The notes under the pieces were generated by a model, which was given only the letters and a program-made list of their open reading frames with translations, made no database searches and was not told where the DNA came from. Positions 1,299-17,322 of a DNA stretch of 24,165 nt are shown here, in pieces (the first letter of the stretch is position 1; each line of letters opens with the position of its first letter). This stretch comes from a virus (Duplodnaviria; Heunggongvirae; Uroviricota; Caudoviricetes): IMG/VR virus record IMGVR_UViG_648276649_000003; one strand, 5' to 3'. Position numbers and translations under genes: made by a program.

Positions 1299-2870
1299 AT
1301 GGACACCTCACTTGCTCATGAGAACGCCCGCCTGCGGGCACTGTTGCAGACGCAACAGGACACCATCCGCCAGATGGCTGAATACAACCGCCTGCTCTCA
1401 CAGCGGGTGGCGGCTTATGCTTCCGAAATCAACCGGCTGAAGGCGCTGGTTGCGAAACTGCAACGTATGCAGTTCGGTAAAAGCTCAGAAAAACTTCGTG
1501 CAAAAACCGAACGGCAGATACAGGAAGCACAGGAGCGAATCAGCGCACTTCAGGAAGAAATGGCGGAAACGCTGGGTGAGCAATATGACCCGGTACTGCC
1601 ATCCGCCCTGCGCCAGTCTTCAGCCCGTAAACCGTTACCGGCCTCACTTCCCCGTGAAACCCGGGTTATCCGGCCGGAAGAGGAATGCTGTCCTGCCTGT
1701 GGTGGTGAACTCAGTTCTCTGGGATGTGATGTGTCAGAGCAACTGGAGCTTATCAGCAGCGCCTTTAAGGTTATCGAAACACAACGTCCGAAACAGGCCT
1801 GTTGCCGGTGCGACCATATCGTGCAGGCACCAGTACCTTCAAAACCCATTGCACGCAGTTATGCCGGAGCGGGGCTTCTGGCCCATGTTGTCACCGGGAA
1901 ATATGCAGACCATCTGCCGTTATACCGCCAGTCAGAAATATACCGTCGTCAGGGAGTGGAGCTGAGCCGTGCCACACTGGGGCGCTGGACAGGTGCTGTT
2001 GCTGAACTGCTGGAGCCGCTGTATGACGTCCTGCGCCAGTATGTGCTGATGCCCGGTAAAGTCCATGCTGATGATATCCCCGTCCCGGTCCAGGAGCCGG
2101 GCAGCGGTAAAACCCGGACAGCCCGGCTGTGGGTCTACGTCCGTGATGACCGTAACGCCGGTTCACAGATGCCCCCGGCGGTCTGGTTCGCGTACAGTCC
2201 GGACCGGAAAGGTATCCATCCACAAAATCACCTGGCCGGTTACAGCGGTGTGCTTCAGGCCGATGCTTACGGTGGTTACCGGGCGTTATACGAATCCGGC
2301 AGAATAACGGAAGCCGCGTGTATGGCTCATGCCCGGAGAAAAATCCACGATGTGCATGCAAGAGCGCCCACCTACATCACCACGGAAGCCCTGCAGCGTA
2401 TCGGTGAACTGTATGCCATCGAGGCAGAGGTCCGGGGCTGTTCAGCAGAACAGCGTCTGGCGGCAAGAAAAGCCAGAGCCGCGCCACTGATGCAGTCACT
2501 GTATGACTGGATACAGCAACAGATGAAAACACTGTCGCGTCACTCAGATACGGCAAAAGCGTTCGCATACCTGCTGAAACAGTGGGATGCACTGAACGTG
2601 TACTGCAGTAATGGCTGGGTGGAAATCGACAACAACATCGCAGAGAACGCCTTACGGGGAGTGGCCGTAGGCCGGAAAAACTGGATGTTCGCGGGTTCCG
2701 ACAGCGGTGGTGAACATGCGGCGGTGTTGTACTCGCTGATCGGCACATGCCGTCTGAACAATGTGGAGCCAGAAAAGTGGCTGCGTTACGTCATTGAACA
2801 TATCCAGGACTGGCCGGCAAACCGGGTACGCGATCTGTTGCCCTGGAAAGTTGATCTGAGCTCTCAGTAA
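1299..2870 (+). CDS. IS66-family transposase (TnpC)
   Basis: 523-aa product with N-terminal coiled-coil/leucine-zipper region, CxxC...CxxC zinc-finger motif (CPACGG...CCRCDH) and conserved C-terminal core of IS66 transposases. Confidence 0.9.
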
Positions 2871-2900
2871 ATATCAATACGGTTCTGACGAGTCGCTTAC

Positions 2901-2908
2901 ACAAAAGT
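2901..2908. repeat. Target-site duplication, right copy (ACAAAAGT)
   Basis: Exact direct repeat of 194-201 immediately after the right IS end. Confidence 0.75.
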
Positions 2909-3109
2909 GACTACAGAAATAGTTGCAATTCATAATTGATCATGGGTTGTCAGTTAAACTCGTGGCGATTTAAATAGACTAATTGGGAGTGCGTCCATTA
3001 CTTATATCTTGTAATGTTAACTATCAGAAATGATACAAAGATAATATGTCTTTAAAGAAAAGGCTGATGGCGAAAAGTGGCCCGATGAGGGCCACAATAC
3101 GGCTGTCAC

Positions 3110-3442
3110 TTAGACGTAAATATCAATGGTGCCAGCGGTATTTGTATCGTCTTTTTTCTCTTCTTTTTTATCAGGCTGAACTGTCGCGTCTTCATTCTTT
3201 TTCTCTGCCTGCTGCCTTAACAACTGCTCCAGTTGAGCCCTGAGGCTTTCAATTTGCTTCTGTACCAATGCAGCCATTTCTTTTTTCTGCTGTGTCGTCA
3301 TCCCCTCTTCCGATGAGATTTTCCCAAGCTTTTCAGTCAGCACCTGAATTTGTCTTGTGATTTTGGCTATTTCTGATGTTCCTTCCGGGGCGGAGTTGTT
3401 TGAAATAACGGTTGAGGTATTTCCCTGAATTGTGACAGACAT
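3110..3442 (-). CDS. FlxA-like protein (110 aa, Q/K/E-rich coiled-coil)
   Basis: Translation MSVTIQGNTSTVISNNSAPEGTSEIAKITRQIQVLTEKL... matches my recollection of the FlxA-like family from E. coli prophages; the plus-strand sequence downstream of the ATG (rc of 3443-3456) reads AAAGGAGAAATCTATG, giving a Shine-Dalgarno-like AAGGAG. Confidence 0.55.
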   Translation of the reverse strand: MSVTIQGNTSTVISNNSAPEGTSEIAKITRQIQVLTEKLGKISSEEGMTTQQKKEMAALVQKQIESLRAQLEQLLRQQAEKKNEDATVQPDKKEEKKDDTNTAGTIDIYV

Positions 3443-3620
3443 AGATTTCTCCTTTTAAAAAAGCACTATCGACATGCACAAAAAAATCTTTAATCGTATT
3501 TCTTGTGTCATTAATTGTTTGATGTTCAGATTGTTTTCCTCGCGGGCTGGCGCGCCTCAGAAAGTAAAGCTTGTTGACAGGGGTAAACGTTCGGCAATAA
3601 TTTTCTGCCGCATGCGGGTG

Positions 3621-7154: not shown

Positions 7155-7786
7155 CCAATCGCGAAAACTCTAAAGCCACCGTAGCCAGCACATGTAATCT
7201 GAGTTCTTGTTACCGTCGTATAGTATGATCGGCCCACCGCTAAGCTATATGCGGCTGTAGAACTCAAATCAACTGCCCCAGTTGATACATCACTAAATAA
7301 CGGAATCATGCACTCATTTGGGAATGCAATAGGGAAATTCGCAGTTACTGGTGTCACATAATCAGTTGTAGCAGCACCAAACCACTGCAATATGATCACC
7401 CGTTCTTTCCCGGCGACCATTGCCGGGATAGTCATATAGCCTGTAGAGCCGGTCACACACACCGCTGCGCCTAATTTTGCTCCCTCTCCCAAACCAAGGT
7501 TTTCGAGAGCCGTTTTCACCGTGCCATCCGATTTGATATCGCCAAACGGATTCTTGCGGCTTAACAGCAGCGCACGAAGCGCTGTAAGTAGCTGGTCATG
7601 CCGCCCCTTCTCCAGGCTGGCACCGGATGCCTCCACAACACTGCAAAGTTCCTCCTGCAACATGTCAAAGTAGTCATCATCCAGATCGGTGGCAGGTGTG
7701 CCGGTCTGGGGGTTACCACGGGTAAAACCGTTCTTACCCGCGCCGAACTTATCCTTCTGCGCGGTTTTCGTATCTATACGATGCAT
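7148..7786 (-). CDS. Side tail-fibre protein (constant N-terminus plus currently expressed variable C-terminus)
   Basis: N-terminus [29 protein letters not shown] is typical of Stf-type fibres; the crossover site falls at about codon 96-102 (NLGLGEG). Confidence 0.75.
7478..7503. repeat. Right inversion crossover site (inside the tail-fibre gene)
   Basis: Reverse complement reads TCGAAAACC-TT-GGTTTGGGAGAGG, matching the left site at about 21 of 23 positions. Confidence 0.7.
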
Positions 7787-12978: not shown

Positions 12979-13301
12979 ACTTTCAGGTCCCTCTCATGTA
13001 ACCAGTGGGTTGCACGCAGCCTTGCGTTTTCCTCACCGGCAAGCAGTGCGCGGATAATCCCGACCGCCTCGCTGTCGTCGTCCTTCACCGCGGTATGAAG
13101 CGTTATCCCCCGGGCCATGCCACGCTTTATCGTGATGACGCCTTTTTTCTCCAGTGCGCGAAGATGCTCCACCGCTGCATTCACCGAACGGTATCCCAGC
13201 ATGGTTGCCACCTCCTGATTGGTTGGCGGGAAGCCACGTTCTTTCTGATAAGAAATCAGCATATCCAGCACCTGCTGCTGGCATTGAGTTAACGTCGTCA
13301 T
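12975..13301 (-). CDS. LexA N-terminal DNA-binding-domain-like protein lacking the S24 peptidase domain
   Basis: 108 aa; LTQCQQQVLDML...GFPPTNQEVATMLGYRSVNAAVEHLRALEKKGVITIKRGMARGI aligns with the LexA winged-helix pattern (LT.RQQ.V...G.PPT..E.A..LG.RS.NAA.EHL.AL..KGVI.I..G..RGI); no Ala-Gly cleavage site or Ser/Lys peptidase domain follows. Confidence 0.6.
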   Translation of the reverse strand: MTTLTQCQQQVLDMLISYQKERGFPPTNQEVATMLGYRSVNAAVEHLRALEKKGVITIKRGMARGITLHTAVKDDDSEAVGIIRALLAGEENARLRATHWLHERDLKV

Positions 13302-13951
13302 GCCGCCATCTCCCTGACCAGTTTTTCCGCCTGCTGGCGAACCTGCGCCAGAAACGCCTCACCACATGCCTCAAGTTCATCGCGCCCGATGTAGCTGATT
13401 GCCGGTCCCTTCCATGTCTTGTCAAAAACAGCAATAGCACCAGCGAAAAAAGCTCCTGTCGGTACCTGCTTCTCGTCTTTCGGGATAAACCAGACAGGCA
13501 GTTCAAAACCAATACGCCCGCGAATAAAAGCAATATGATCTGCATCTTCCGGCCACCACACTTCGCTGGTGGCAGCTTTGATCAGGAAAACATAGCGCCC
13601 GCCCTTATCACGCATGGCACTGGCATGTTTCATGATGTAACGCATGCCGGTGATGTATTGCCCCTCATGCTGACTGGCGCGGCTGTATGGGGGATTACCA
13701 AAGGCAGCACCTTTAAGCTCCGCAAGACGTTCTGACCAGTCATGCGCCAGCGCGTTGTCTTCCGCCGTGTAATACGCGGCACATTTGGCGTTATCACCGT
13801 CAGTGAACAGATCCAGAACAAACGGGCCAAACAGGGTGTTAATTCCCCAGAAAATGTTGTCCGGCGTGCGCCACTGATCGCCCACTTCCTTCAGTTCATG
13901 GGCTGGTTTGTTCCGCAGTTCCACCAGCGTCTGGCAATATTTATTACTCAT
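13298..13951 (-). CDS. Phage-type N6-adenine DNA methyltransferase (Dam-like, orphan)
   Basis: NPPY-type catalytic motif (FGNPPYS). Start placed at the MSNKYCQ methionine (13951), which overlaps the upstream stop by one base (TAATG); an in-frame upstream ATG at 13984 is an alternative. Confidence 0.7.
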   Translation of the reverse strand: MSNKYCQTLVELRNKPAHELKEVGDQWRTPDNIFWGINTLFGPFVLDLFTDGDNAKCAAYYTAEDNALAHDWSERLAELKGAAFGNPPYSRASQHEGQYITGMRYIMKHASAMRDKGGRYVFLIKAATSEVWWPEDADHIAFIRGRIGFELPVWFIPKDEKQVPTGAFFAGAIAVFDKTWKGPAISYIGRDELEACGEAFLAQVRQQAEKLVREMAA

Positions 13952-14445
13952 TAAGCCCCCACGTAATTCCCTGACAGATACCACTCTTCACCCGATGCAG
14001 CGCGCTTGCTGCTTTTCCGTAAGCACCGCTCACGACGCGCCAGAAAATTGTTTCGTTCTGGCTGGGAGTGGCTTTCACGGAATGCCGCCATCCACACGGT
14101 TGCAGCACGACGGTATAAGCCCCTGGACTCCAGTTCTTCCGCCTGGCGGGTCAGGCACAAAATCACACGGGGATCGTTAGTGCCGACATAGAAATTGCGC
14201 ACAGGTCTGGTTTCACGAACTGGTTGTGGTTCCGGTTCCTGCGCTCTCTCAGTCAGGCGCGGGAAATGTCTGCGTGTATCTCCTTCACAACGGTGAGCCA
14301 CACGCCCACTCTGACGTAACTTGCTTGCTGACTGCAGAACGCGCTGCCGTGAGTAACCGGCAAAAGCATCCGCAATATCTCCGGAAGTACAGCCCGGATG
14401 GGCTTCAATGAATTTCTGAACGTCATTCAAAAGACTCATGCTCAC
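13951..14445 (-). CDS. Putative PerC-family-like regulator with an N-terminal extension
   Basis: C-terminal AEELESRGLYRRAATVWMAAF...RRERCL resembles the PerC/Pch signature as I recall it (AE.LE..GLYRRAA..W...RR..CL); identity is tentative. Confidence 0.45.
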   Translation of the reverse strand: MSMSLLNDVQKFIEAHPGCTSGDIADAFAGYSRQRVLQSASKLRQSGRVAHRCEGDTRRHFPRLTERAQEPEPQPVRETRPVRNFYVGTNDPRVILCLTRQAEELESRGLYRRAATVWMAAFRESHSQPERNNFLARRERCLRKSSKRAASGEEWYLSGNYVGA

Positions 14446-15383
14446 CCCCTGAATCCTGCCGGGATCTGGCTGTAGTCCACGTTGTCGTAACTGGCTTTGA
14501 AGTACGGGTCTTCGCGTTTTTCGGTGTACGTGCTGACGGACGGCGATAAGCGCAGGGAAAGCTCATCCCATTTTTCCCGCAGCTTCGACGGGCTGAGCAC
14601 GTTACGGCACCAGAACGGATCGCGACTGACGCGGCTGTACATCTCGCAGATTTGTTTATGAGTACGACCATCCTGCACACACATCAGGCGAATTTCGTTT
14701 GCCCAGGCTGTCCAGTTCGGTTCTTTGGGACGAACCACCTCGCCGTCACATTCGGCGGCCTGCTCGTACAGGGCGATGATTTTTTTCCAGAGCCACTGTG
14801 CGCAGGTCAAATCATCCTGCGTTCCCCACTGGCGCTTTTTAGGGCTGAATACAACCGCATCAGGATGGCGAGTTAAAAACTCCTGTTCAGCCGTCTGCGT
14901 GTCCGGTTGCGAAGCGTCCGGACGAGAAGTTTTTTTATCTGACGGATCATGTTTTGATTTTACTGACGGATCCCCGCCAGATTCTGACGGGTGAAAAACC
15001 GCTTTTTTGCCAGATTTCGACGCATCAAATTTTGACGGGTCAGATTTTGATGCGTCAGATTTTGACGGGTCAGAATCTGACAGTTGAGAAAATGCCGCTG
15101 CCTGAAGCTTCGCAACGTTAAGCTGATAAACATTCGACGCATTGCGGTTACCTTGGCGACGCGCCTTACGCGTTAACCAGCCTTCTGCTTCCAGCCGTGC
15201 GATAGCCGTTCTGACGGTACTCATCCCCGCGCCAATCTGACGGGCAATAGTTTCAATTGATGGCCAGCACACACCTTCGTCATTACTGAAATCAGCCAGG
15301 CGGGCCATAATTGCCACGCTGGATAATTTCATGCCTGACGCTGCGCAACCATCCCATACATAGCCGGTTAATTTAGTGCTCAT
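14442..15383 (-). CDS. Phage replication-initiation protein (N-terminal winged-helix DNA-binding domain, internal repeat linker)
   Basis: 313 aa; N-terminal HTH region; central low-complexity SKSD/ASKSD pentapeptide repeats encoded by 15-bp tandem DNA repeats; position next to the immunity region. Confidence 0.6.
   Translation of the reverse strand: MSTKLTGYVWDGCAASGMKLSSVAIMARLADFSNDEGVCWPSIETIARQIGAGMSTVRTAIARLEAEGWLTRKARRQGNRNASNVYQLNVAKLQAAAFSQLSDSDPSKSDASKSDPSKFDASKSGKKAVFHPSESGGDPSVKSKHDPSDKKTSRPDASQPDTQTAEQEFLTRHPDAVVFSPKKRQWGTQDDLTCAQWLWKKIIALYEQAAECDGEVVRPKEPNWTAWANEIRLMCVQDGRTHKQICEMYSRVSRDPFWCRNVLSPSKLREKWDELSLRLSPSVSTYTEKREDPYFKASYDNVDYSQIPAGFRG
14938..15085. repeat. Iteron-like tandem 15-bp repeats (CAGATTTTGACGGGT-like, at least 6 copies) embedded in the replication gene
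   Basis: Copies at 14978-14992, 15011-15025, 15026-15040, 15041-15055, 15056-15070 and 15071-15085, plus degenerate upstream copies; flanked by A/T runs (14930-14936, 15003-15008). Confidence 0.6.
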
Positions 15384-15392
15384 GACCGACCT

Positions 15393-15731
15393 CTATTTCC
15401 CTGAATTTACGACGAAACTGTTCGAGCGGGCTGAAGCACTCATGCTCATAGCCTTCACGGAGGTAGATAACCCGTTGTGTTTCCGGCTCCCAACGAATGA
15501 CTCTGACGGGCACTCCGTAGTGATCTTTGAACCAGCGGTTAACTTGTCGCAAAGGACTGTCTCCTTCTGCCGGTTAAAATCACCCACAGCCCACTCTGCA
15601 AAGCTGTGGGTTACAATTACCCTGCCACCTGGTACATTTACTGCATAGCAATACTCCACCTTCGCTTTTCCACCCGGTACAGGAAGCGCAATCAGTTGCG
15701 AGCGACGGTAGTGTGTTGTTAAACTATTCAT
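15393..15731 (-). CDS. Hypothetical phage protein (e14 YmfM-like by size and position)
   Basis: 112-aa ORF in the early-right operon between the immunity and replication genes; no recognisable motif. Confidence 0.45.
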
Positions 15732-16279
15732 GCGTTAGTTTCTCCACAGTCACGACACGCCACGGCGCCCGGAGCTGCACACTCGCGGGCGTCATTACTT
15801 TCTGAAATGCAAAAAATTTTGTAGACCAGTGCTGCATGCTCCTGCAGCTTCGAAATTGAGAGGTACAGCTCGTCGTTAATTGCTGTCTTCTCATGCGGTT
15901 CCACTACACCGTCTTCAATTGCTGAACGAATCTGTTTTGAATAACTGCCGATCTGTTCAATGACCTCCAGCAGGCGTTGGTTGATATCGGCGTTGTCCAC
16001 ATCCTCGACATCAGGAAGAGACACAAAGACGCCATTTGCAGACTGCGCCACAGCGTCAGCAATGAAGTGAGTTCCACCAGCACGTTGCAAAATCATTGCC
16101 CATCCCAGCGGGAAAATCTGATCGCCATCGGCACGAAGGCGGTTAAATAATGCGTTCTCTGTTACATCCAGCCAGTCAGCAGCTTCAGCGTAACCCCCCG
16201 GCAACGCTGCGATAGTTTTTCTGACAGCTTTCACGTACCACTCAGGCTGTTTTTCTACTTTCCAGTGATGCTTACCCAC
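15728..16279 (-). CDS. Hypothetical phage early protein (e14 YmfL-like by size and position)
   Basis: 183 aa, directly downstream of cro in the same operon; overlapping starts and stops. Confidence 0.5.
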
Positions 16280-16532
16280 GGTTCACCTCCTGTTCCTGTG
16301 GTTTAAACCCATTCTGGTTTTGGCTAGATTGAAAACGTGCCGGATAAAGAATCTGCATTTCGCTGACTTCACCCTTAAAAAAATTGGCTAAACGTTCTGC
16401 AAGCTCGATAGATGGAATCTGCTCCAGCCTCTCAATACGACTCAACGTCGCTGGATTGACTTGAACACCCGCAGCAACATGCTGCAAAGTGAAACCATGC
16501 GCCTTACGCACATTTCGTAATGGTGATTGCAT
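16272..16532 (-). CDS. Cro-like HTH (XRE-family) regulator
   Basis: 86 aa with HTH (GFTLQHVAAGVQVNPATLSRIE); divergent from cI; GGAGG Shine-Dalgarno 5 nt upstream of the ATG. Confidence 0.7.
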   Translation of the reverse strand: MQSPLRNVRKAHGFTLQHVAAGVQVNPATLSRIERLEQIPSIELAERLANFFKGEVSEMQILYPARFQSSQNQNGFKPQEQEVNRG

Positions 16533-16629
16533 ATAACCTCCAAATATTGCGCGTTATGCATGTTATTTCACGCAATTATTTTGCGCAAGTTGATTTGCTT
16601 ATCACGCAATAAAGAAATGTAATAAACGC
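16533..16629. promoter_or_regulatory. cro-cI divergent promoter/operator region with repeated TTGC...GCAA-type sites
   Basis: 97-bp intergenic region containing ATTGCGCG (16546-16553), TCACGCAA (16568-16575), palindromic TTGCGCAA (16581-16588) and a 15-bp site TTGCTTATCACGCAA (16595-16609). Confidence 0.6.
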
Positions 16630-17322
16630 ATGAACATAGGAAACCGAGTCAGACAACTTCGCCAAGCGAAGAACATGAAAATCGCCGATCTCGCTGAAGC
16701 AATAGGAGTAGATGCGGCGAACATCTCGCGCTTAGAAACGGGTAAGCAAAAACAATTTACCGAACAAACACTGAGTAATATTGCCAAGAGCTTAGGTGTT
16801 GATATTGCTGATCTCTTTACCTCTGCCCACAAAAGTAATACTGTATATAAAAACAGTAATAATGAGGATGTTGCGCAGGTGAAGGATGTGTTCCGTATTG
16901 AAATGCTGGATATCAGTGCCAGTGCGGGAAATGGCCTTATCCAGGGCGGTGATGTCATTGATGTGATTCATGCCATCGAATACAGAACTGATAATGCTGT
17001 ATCAATGTTCGGCGGACGACCAGCCAATCACATCAAAGTTATCAACGTTCGTGGGGACAGTATGTGTCCAACCATTGAGCCAGGAGATCTCATCTTCGTT
17101 GATGTCAGCATCAATCAGTTTGATGGTGATGGTATATATGTCTTTGGTTTTGATGACAAAATATACGTTAAAAGACTTCAAATGATTCCTGACAAACTGC
17201 TGGTGATTTCTGATAACCAGATTTACCGTGAATGGGGAATTACTAGCGAAAACGAACACCGATTCATGGTCTTTGGAAAGGTCTTAATCAGTCAGTCGCA
17301 AACCCTTAAGAGACATAATTAA
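16630..17322 (+). CDS. CI-like prophage repressor (HTH_XRE plus S24 LexA-like peptidase domain)
   Basis: 230 aa; N-terminal HTH (MKIADLAEAIGVDAANISRLETGKQ); C-terminal S24 signature (GDSMCPTIEPGDLIFVD ... YVKRL). Confidence 0.85.
   Translation: MNIGNRVRQLRQAKNMKIADLAEAIGVDAANISRLETGKQKQFTEQTLSNIAKSLGVDIADLFTSAHKSNTVYKNSNNEDVAQVKDVFRIEMLDISASAGNGLIQGGDVIDVIHAIEYRTDNAVSMFGGRPANHIKVINVRGDSMCPTIEPGDLIFVDVSINQFDGDGIYVFGFDDKIYVKRLQMIPDKLLVISDNQIYREWGITSENEHRFMVFGKVLISQSQTLKRHN

Follow-up and report, generated by a model that had tools for sequence, protein, structure and literature searches.

A probable replication origin inside the linker-coding part of the initiator gene of an SfIV/CPS-53-type lambdoid prophage

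Introduction

Lambdoid phages carry their replication origin in the middle of gene O, as O-binding iterons together with an A/T-rich tract (PMC7466680). We analysed a stretch of 24,165 nucleotides from a Caudoviricetes genome (IMG/VR record IMGVR_UViG_648276649_000003; hereafter the window), in which an array of short direct repeats lies inside a replication initiator gene. An initial annotation, made from the letters of this DNA, had proposed that the repeats are origin iterons in an arrangement that mirrors lambda. Our comparisons suggest that positions 14925-15083 are most probably the replication origin of an SfIV/CPS-53-type lambdoid prophage, situated in the linker-coding part of its own initiator gene. 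The evidence comes from the anatomy of the repeats and of the A/T-rich block beside them, from the conservation of the DNA across changes of peptide and reading frame, and from the inheritance of the repeats together with the DNA-binding domain of the initiator.

Results

An O-like initiator with a disordered linker

The tandem array, a proximal unit and two half-units all fall within one minus-strand gene, which encodes 313 residues (Table 1). The initial annotation had taken it for a replication initiator gene, and a full-length match to phrog_391, 'replication initiation O-like', bears this out (E=6.8e-135; residues 1-313 against profile positions 1-298 of 298). The protein is also matched by phrog_277, and 2367 homologues were found at E<=1e-10. 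At the N-terminus, residues 23-70 match Pfam HTH_36 (E=4.3e-11), with weaker matches to GntR, MarR, DnaD_N and RP-C. According to an AlphaFold model built from 36 homologues, the N-terminal domain (N-domain) has helices at residues 3-16, 20-31, 43-50 and 54-66 and a wing at 70-74/84-88, with a predicted local distance difference test (pLDDT) score of ~85 over residues 20-70 and of 70-78 at the domain ends. Foldseek with this domain returns winged-helix DNA binders of the MarR/ArsR type, and a sequence search of solved structures gave weak MarR-type winged-helix matches only. S55, T56 and V57 of the recognition helix are invariant or nearly so among homologues.

The C-terminal domain (C-domain; pLDDT ~90) aligns with those of two characterized initiators. 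BLASTP pairs residues 131-277 with residues 139-270 of lambda O at 35% identity (E=2e-25), and the C-domain of phi80 gp15 is matched at 35% identity (E=2e-25). BLASTP gives no N-terminal alignment with lambda O, and the N-terminal family of lambda-type replication protein O is not listed by a Pfam scan of the initiator. As judged from these alignments, the initiator appears to belong to the lambda O family by its C-domain only and not by its N-domain. Identity with phi80 gene 15, prompted by the annotation 'Replication protein 15' of a homologue, was considered and rejected: the C-domain alone is shared, and phi80 has an N-domain and iterons of its own. Between the two domains, residues 102-162 are predicted to form a disordered linker (pLDDT <50). 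The repeats correspond to residues 101-150, of which the five tandem units and the displaced unit make up 101-136. In-frame translation and the predicted disorder thus agree with the initial reading that the repeats encode a linker between a DNA-binding N-domain and a C-domain.

Table 1. Features of the initiator gene and of the putative origin within it (positions in the window)
Feature	Positions	Strand	Description
Replication initiator gene, 313 residues, O-like	14442-15383	minus	SfIV gp41, SfII 'O protein family', intact yfdO
N-terminal winged-helix domain, residues 1-98, presumed iteron reader	15090-15383	minus	Pfam HTH_36, AlphaFold, Foldseek
Tandem iteron array	15009-15083	minus	Five in-frame 15-bp units, each a 3-nt variable spacer plus core TCA RAA TCT GA(C); encodes x-S-K-S-D
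Tandem unit 1	15083-15069	minus	CTG TCA GAT TCT GAC, LSDSD
Tandem unit 2	15068-15054	minus	CCG TCA AAA TCT GAC, PSKSD
Tandem unit 3	15053-15039	minus	GCA TCA AAA TCT GAC, ASKSD
Tandem unit 4	15038-15024	minus	CCG TCA AAA TTT GAT, PSKFD
Tandem unit 5	15023-15009	minus	GCG TCG AAA TCT GGC, ASKSG
A6-GCGG-T5 spacer, 18 bp, array to proximal iteron	14991-15008	minus	A- and T-tracts kept in distant relatives
A/T-proximal (displaced sixth) iteron	14976-14990	minus	CCG TCA GAA TCT GGC, PSESG
Conserved A/T-rich block, candidate DNA-unwinding element	14925-14975	minus	Two GATCCGTCAG half-site repeats and two GATC
Mosaic junction	14929-14938		C-terminal half downstream common to initiators with unrelated N-domain and repeats
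C-terminal domain, residues 163-280	14544-14897	minus	Homologous to lambda O and phi80 gp15 C-domains
C-terminal tail YSQIPAGFRG, residues 304-313	14445-14474	minus	Resembles E. coli DnaT end DSQIPPGFRG

A near-palindromic core at 15-bp spacing

The 11 bp at the core of the repeat, TCA(A/G)AATCTGA, come close to a palindrome, of which TCAGA-A-TCTGA is the perfect form; the core of the proximal iteron, TCAGAATCTGG, is a single base off it. Because the core is near-palindromic, the array amounts to a row of 5-bp half-sites in alternating, inverted orientation, with centres 6 and 9 bp apart. Two sites would be open to a winged-helix dimer: TCAGA-A-TCTGA within a single unit, for which TCAGAATCTGA is the candidate site, or the alternative that spans the spacer, TCTGAC-NNN-TCAGA. 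Tandem Repeats Finder calls the array at 15011-15074 both with period 15 (4.3 copies, 81% matches, score 86) and with period 30 (2.1 copies, 88% matches, score 100). The 30-bp super-period reflects the alternating spacer codon, CCG then GCA/GCG. A repeat search likewise returned copies spaced 15 bp apart and many overlapping inverted repeats. The claim of at least six tandem 15-bp units is right as to the repeats and needs correction as to their arrangement, since five are contiguous and one is displaced. With up to one mismatch, TCARAATCTGA occurs six times in the 24-kb window, every copy within 14977-15080, against a chance expectation of 1.06; six copies were reached in 0 of 100 shuffles. 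Two half-units starting CCGTCAG (GAT CCG TCA G...) lie at 14969 and 14945, within the A/T-rich stretch. The A/T runs described around the repeats are present as T7 at 14931-14937 and A5/T6 at 14995-15009. Copies of CTGACGG in the N-domain coding region (15205-15244) were put down to chance, as the codons there vary freely among the 76 loci compared below.

Along the direction in which the gene is transcribed, the A/T-rich block comes directly after the iterons. Its part at 14925-14964 is the least stable 40-mer of the gene, with 72.5% A+T, and ranks in the top 1.6% of the window. Dam (GATC) sites at 14945-14948 and 14969-14972, 24 bp apart, are placed within the GATCCGTCAG repeats. The first GATC is found in 71 of 71 loci and the second, 24 nt off, in 61 of them, with another spacing in two more. 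A Dam-type methylase gene (13298-13984) lies two genes downstream of the initiator, and one is found within ~1.5 kb in at least 30 of 73 relatives. The conserved GATC sites and the nearby Dam gene hint at methylation-dependent control of the origin, a hint inseparable from the general nucleotide conservation of the block. The DnaA box TTWTNCACA has no match in the whole window.

Conservation of the DNA rather than the peptide

Two sets of loci were compared. The species set takes one locus from each of 80 bacterial species, the N-domains being 52-100% identical to that of the window, and the close set comprises 80 near-identical IMG/VR loci. All informative species-level loci encode x-S-K-S-D-like repeats and then the block F(H/D)P(S/P)ESGGDPSV(K/N)S..DPS, and in 76 loci from different species the core and the following block are nearly invariant, synonymous sites included. 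In a position matrix of 442 units from 76 non-redundant species-level loci, unit positions 4-14 mostly carry 1.3-2.0 bits, third codon positions included, with ~0.9 bits at positions 7 and 14; G stands at position 7 in about 40% of units. The first codon of the unit, which specifies the variable residue and forms the 3-nt spacer, carries 0.4-0.8 bits. Codon usage follows the DNA motif. Lys is encoded by AAA in 221 of 221 cases within units versus 63% in the background, and Ser by AGY in 8 of ~890 cases within units versus 47% elsewhere in the same genes. For the N-domain, comparison of the window with 31 loci of <80% N-domain identity finds an identical codon at 39% of conserved residues, and in codons 46-62 every synonymous alternative is in use. 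Third codon positions carry on average 1.30 bits of information in the block that follows the array versus 0.55 bits in the N-domain, and mostly 1.2-2.0 bits within the A/T block. Across 71 loci, the third base is invariant at TTT, TCA, GAT, TCA, GTA and TCA of the block, and the third codon positions of the proximal iteron are nearly invariant.

In phiP27 and a Citrobacter prophage (L085), the proximal iteron is read in another frame, with a 1-nt deletion before it and a 1-nt insertion after it. The frame-swapped iteron, CC(G/T)TCAGAATCTG, is unchanged as DNA, and its peptide is T(R/L)QNL, not PSESG. More distant relatives retain CCAGAATCTGG despite a change of the peptide to PPESG. We regard the frame swap as the most telling evidence that the DNA is the selected object. 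A protein-only explanation does not account for the codon, information and frame-swap data. From these comparisons, selection clearly preserves the DNA and not the encoded peptide. The synonymous-site and frame-swap comparisons thus uphold nucleotide-level selection, beyond coding need, on the repeats and the adjacent A/T block. Among close relatives, the repeat region is not less variable than the N-domain, so that at this short distance the comparison says nothing on constraint.

Copy number of the units

The 76 species-level loci have 2-10 units each, with a mode of 6. Wherever the linker is readable, length differences are whole-unit insertions or deletions; Kp4871-1 and 733R5 differ by two units. 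Among 80 loci with identical N-domains, the protein has 313 residues in 73, 318 in two, 323 in two, 308 in one and 303 in one, and is frameshifted in one. In a spread E. coli sample, all 17 full-length matches are exactly 942 bp. The repeats had been called a contraction and expansion hotspot. Whole-unit changes are indeed present among the relatives compared, and make the array a modest hotspot that falls short of hypervariability.

Co-inheritance of repeats and DNA-binding domain

The N-domain, the repeats and the A/T block co-occur with at least three unrelated C-terminal domains: a lambda-O-like type in the window, Kp4871-1 and 733R5, a second type in phiNP, LLS, YeP2 and KpnBHU6, and a third in phiP27. 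The C-terminal half, in turn, is found with other N-terminal halves. mEp460_4F5 matches only 14442-14938, at 97% nucleotide identity that ends just past the A/T block, and upstream of this junction its N-domain is unrelated and its repeats, of 23 bp, are its own. The match of another E. coli copy, which is annotated as 'phage replication protein O', spans 14442-14929. At the equivalent position, mEp460, SfV and ST64B have their own repeats of ~21-24 bp, and Min27 has its own 21-bp repeats. The records of both lambda and phi80 contain, at the equivalent place in the gene, the annotated initiator-binding iterons expected from the lambda comparison: four iterons of ~19-20 bp, annotated as ori iterons, in lambda, and four annotated gp15 binding sites of 15-16 bp, ~21 bp apart, in phi80. 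A subfamily with the recognition helix STVK[SA]AI and a one-residue insertion has a shifted core, TCAA-N3-TTGAC, with the 15-bp spacing kept. By these sequences, the repeats co-vary with the DNA-binding domain of the initiator: they are inherited together, and other N-domains go with other repeats.

A DnaT-like tail and no loader gene

Eight of nine residues at the end of the initiator are identical to the extreme C-terminus of DnaT (SQIPAGFRG versus SQIPPGFRG), and G310, F311 and R312 are invariant in the 36 homologues. The tail is common to initiators of different C-domains, even as DNA. Homology of the C-domain to the C-terminal domain of DnaT was examined and rejected, as hhalign aligns the 10-residue tail alone, and Pfam and NCBIfam scans of the initiator gave no DnaT family match. 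Since the alignment is limited to the last 10 residues, 'primosomal protein' annotations in phage records overstate the relationship. The tail probably explains the 'primosomal protein I' annotations, and it may be a docking motif for a host factor.

No P, DnaB or DnaC gene follows the initiator in the window, and none is annotated beside SfIV gp41. SfIV is an isolated, characterized phage (PMC3851460). With no such gene here or in SfIV, the initiator itself would therefore have to recruit host helicase loading. YfdN was considered as a hidden P analogue and rejected; it has no similarity to lambda P and is a PerC-family protein. A Rac-like relative (L177, a Logan SRR13853430 contig, gene 1501-2448) has its initiator after YdaS/YdaT-type genes; the gene ends EPDTEIPPGFRG, and an IstB/DnaC-like gene comes next. 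This order of initiator and IstB/DnaC-like gene parallels the host dnaT-dnaC pair at 2239-3518 of another locus (L175).

Genomic setting

The gene is 100% identical to a prophage gene of E. coli KW21, inserted beside tRNA-Thr (thrW) and proA. Its nucleotide identity is 99.4% to SfIV gp41 and 98.4% to the SfII 'O protein family' gene. By these matches, we take the host prophage to be of the SfIV/SfII/CPS-53 type at the thrW-proA site. The gene is matched in 2725 of 5426 complete E. coli genomes, with a near-full-length copy in 1576. Genomes of the K-12 lineage (hits H48-H51, CPS-53 yfdO) match only 14442-15150 of the window; CPS-53 therefore keeps the iteron array and the C-domain and is without the first 77-78 codons of the DNA-binding domain.

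The upstream neighbours stand in the early-right order of lambdoid phages, with a divergent CI-like repressor, a Cro-like helix-turn-helix gene, a CII(CP76)-like YmfL gene and a small DUF4222 gene. Calls directly upstream of the initiator conflict. RefSeq has a 59-residue DUF4222 protein at 15373-15552 on the minus strand (phrog_1343, E=2e-34), which shares 11 nt with the start of the initiator gene; the SfIV record has instead a 112-residue open reading frame in another frame (15393-15731 of the window, minus strand), with no family match. Downstream follow, in order, yfdN (PerC family), the Dam-type methylase, a LexA-like protein and RusA. YfdN (13951-14445, minus strand) has its PerC domain at residues 100-151, and its N-terminal half weakly matches MarR-type and Ren-like PHROGs and, again weakly, a winged helix. 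A YfdN/PerC-type gene also follows the initiator in SfIV, in the PerC-carrying relatives L178 and L180 and in ST64B, where the gene (annotated b2357/yfdN-like) goes with an initiator of a different C-domain. In a genomic SELEX (systematic evolution of ligands by exponential enrichment) study of the E. coli regulator SrsR (YgfI), yfdO is named 31 times (PMC9181523).

A sigma-70 scan of 14300-16700 found no promoter-like site within the gene, and a terminator scan of the same interval gave three weak terminator-like sites on the non-coding strand; the overall count of sites was no higher than in shuffles. Elsewhere in the window, Tandem Repeats Finder reported two copies of a 22-bp unit at 7630-7671, where the LysC and DUF2570 genes of the lysis region lie, and three copies of a 9-bp unit, TGATGTCAT, at 16950-16976, inside the CI-like repressor gene.

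Discussion

The proposal of a prophage origin in this gene held in every element that could be checked; binding, unwinding, origin activity and the route of helicase recruitment we infer from the anatomy and the homologies. In the proposed sequence of events, dimers of the N-terminal winged-helix domain would bind the 11-bp TCA(A/G)AATCTGA cores, five in tandem at 15-bp spacing and the proximal one. The nucleoprotein complex would distort the adjacent A/T block at 14925-14975, with its two GATC sites, and lead to its opening. The lambda-O-like C-domain and the DnaT-like tail would then recruit the DnaB-DnaC helicase complex of the host, because the module is without a P, DnaB or DnaC gene of its own.

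Several observations weigh against an origin at this place. Characterized lambdoid origins have a spacing of ~20-24 bp, and both the 15-bp spacing and the 11-bp core seen here fall short of theirs. The A/T-rich block is just moderately A/T-rich, at 72.5% over 40 bp. Less stable 40-mers are found elsewhere in the early region; the one at 16830, in the repressor gene, is the least stable of that region. The palindrome array folds strongly as RNA (14925-15095, minus strand, z=-5.25). The whole tandem array is absent from some Salmonella and Klebsiella copies (P0029, P0030, P0064 and P0067), in which the SGGDPSV block is kept. These prophages may be defective; otherwise the array would be dispensable and the proximal part sufficient for an origin. 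No helicase loader is encoded, and the recruitment step rests on the similarity of a 10-residue tail. In the literature on SfIV, SfII, CPS-53 and yfdO, we found no origin experiment or description for this type of initiator, and the SfIV genome paper does not mention an origin (PMC3851460).

Other functions of the repeats have to be weighed. They might be a low-complexity linker, (x-S-K-S-D)n, generated by slippage and devoid of DNA function, with the origin elsewhere. The predicted disorder of the segment, the whole-unit changes of copy number and the existence of array-less protein variants all fit such a linker, but it leaves unexplained why synonymous sites are fixed across lineages in which those of the N-domain are randomized, why the DNA motif survives changes of frame and peptide, and why the variable codon of the unit is at the same time a 3-nt spacer in the DNA. 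We therefore regard it as very improbable. Constraint could also come from an RNA or single-stranded DNA hairpin of the self-complementary array, for example through mRNA stability or translation, or from an overlapping gene. The RNA fold just mentioned and two alternative-frame open reading frames of 55 and 60 residues through the repeats speak for this. Strong RNA folding, however, comes automatically with tandem palindromes, and the sequence of the units by itself keeps the alternative frames open. Conservation extends to the bases themselves and not merely to their complementarity, while copy number, and hence the pairing partners, vary. In relatives, compensating indels shift the frames and the DNA stays as it is. 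The sole Rfam match, a microRNA precursor family that we put down to the hairpin-like array, is far below threshold (30.7 bits versus a gathering score of 97). A hairpin or overlapping gene is as improbable as the peptide linker.

Less easily dismissed, though still unlikely, is that the repeats are sites for the initiator or another protein that serve regulation (autoregulation of the operon, copy control or a transcriptional roadblock) and not unwinding. Nucleotide-level selection and co-inheritance with the N-domain show that there is a DNA function, not which one, and the A/T block is of moderate instability only. What tips the balance towards an origin is the company that the repeats keep. 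In lambda and phi80, whose initiators have homologous C-domains, the repeats found at this position are the origin or annotated initiator-binding sites (PMC7466680). A conserved A/T-rich block directly follows the repeats, and neither a further copy of the motif nor a DnaA box occurs in the 24-kb window.

The putative origin resembles ori-lambda, and those of Stx phages P27 and 933W and of phi80 gene 15, in several respects: the direct repeats have an A-rich centre and dyad symmetry and lie where the middle of the gene encodes the linker, an A/T-rich region follows downstream of them, the C-terminal initiator domain is homologous, and the gene order is repressor, cro, cII-like gene, initiator. 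The A/T-rich region, at 14925-14964, is less A/T-rich than that of lambda. Iteron number varies between relatives in both cases; there are four in lambda versus six in Stx phages, and the extra iterons lengthen O (PMC7466680). Unlike in lambda, the N-domain of the initiator is of the HTH_36 family, without alignment to that of lambda O. The core is 11 bp at 15-bp spacing, so that each unit encodes exactly one pentapeptide, instead of ~19 bp at 20-24 bp, and there are five tandem units and a displaced one instead of four. The initiator gene is followed by yfdN, the Dam methylase and the LexA-like gene instead of P, and the initiator ends in a DnaT-like tail that lambda O does not have. The comparison with lambda made in the initial annotation consequently applies to the layout of the origin; it does not extend to the whole module, which has no P-like loader, nor to the N-domain, which is not of the lambda O type. 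The layout is classical lambdoid, and the N-domain family, the 11-bp core at 15-bp spacing, the missing loader gene and the DnaT-like tail are differences of detail.

The closest known group is that of the phrog_391 HTH_36 O-like initiators (SfIV gp41, SfII O-family, phiNP Rep, phiP27 L17 and yfdO), of which the protein in the window is a full-length member. The N-domain, the TCARAATCTGA repeats and the A/T block were common to every member examined; the members differ among themselves in the C-domain and in whether a DnaC- or DnaB-like gene follows. We found no description of an origin for this group in the searchable literature. More widely, theta-plasmid iteron origins (pSC101, R6K, RK2 and P1 oriR) have direct-repeat arrays beside an A/T-rich element and winged-helix initiators. 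Their iterons, as a rule 17-22 bp long and spaced ~22 bp apart, usually lie outside the rep gene and often have DnaA boxes with them, unlike the repeats of the window, which are spaced 15 bp apart inside the gene, with no DnaA box in the window. GATC sites in the unwinding region recall P1 oriR and oriC. E. coli DnaT shares its extreme C-terminus with the initiator, which has no detectable similarity to it beyond the tail.

Recruitment of the host helicase through the DnaT-like tail is a lead rather than a result. An O-like HTH_36 protein with a C-terminal motif of DnaT, DopC, has been described by Brezellec et al. 2017 (PMC5509034), and the handover from DnaT to DnaB-DnaC was termed unknown in a 2017 review (PMC5778457). 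On a more speculative view, which we hold to be doubtful, the prophage would be a 'solo' lambdoid replicon. The IPxGFRG tail would replace the phage loader by docking on the partner of the DnaT tail, presumably in the DnaB-DnaC pathway, and firing would be gated by methylation of the two GATC sites through the phage Dam. If true, such a replicon would offer a handle on the step in which DnaT hands over to DnaB-DnaC, and it would suggest that the dnaT-dnaC operon descends from a prophage module of this kind.

The textbook picture of lambdoid replication is unchanged by our results, and the layout is an expected one. What they provide is the location of a probable origin for a very common prophage family, which includes the serotype-converting Shigella phages SfII and SfIV and the cryptic prophage CPS-53 of K-12, and, for a class of winged-helix initiators so far uncharacterized, a defined 11-bp candidate recognition core. 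Practical uses of the region could be to seed prophage-derived replicons and to tell replication-competent prophages from defective ones, in which the array is deleted or the N-domain truncated; it could also explain length polymorphism in the initiator gene. The locus is also a clean natural example of an overlapping DNA element that dictates the sequence of a protein linker, with the same motif maintained across reading frames.

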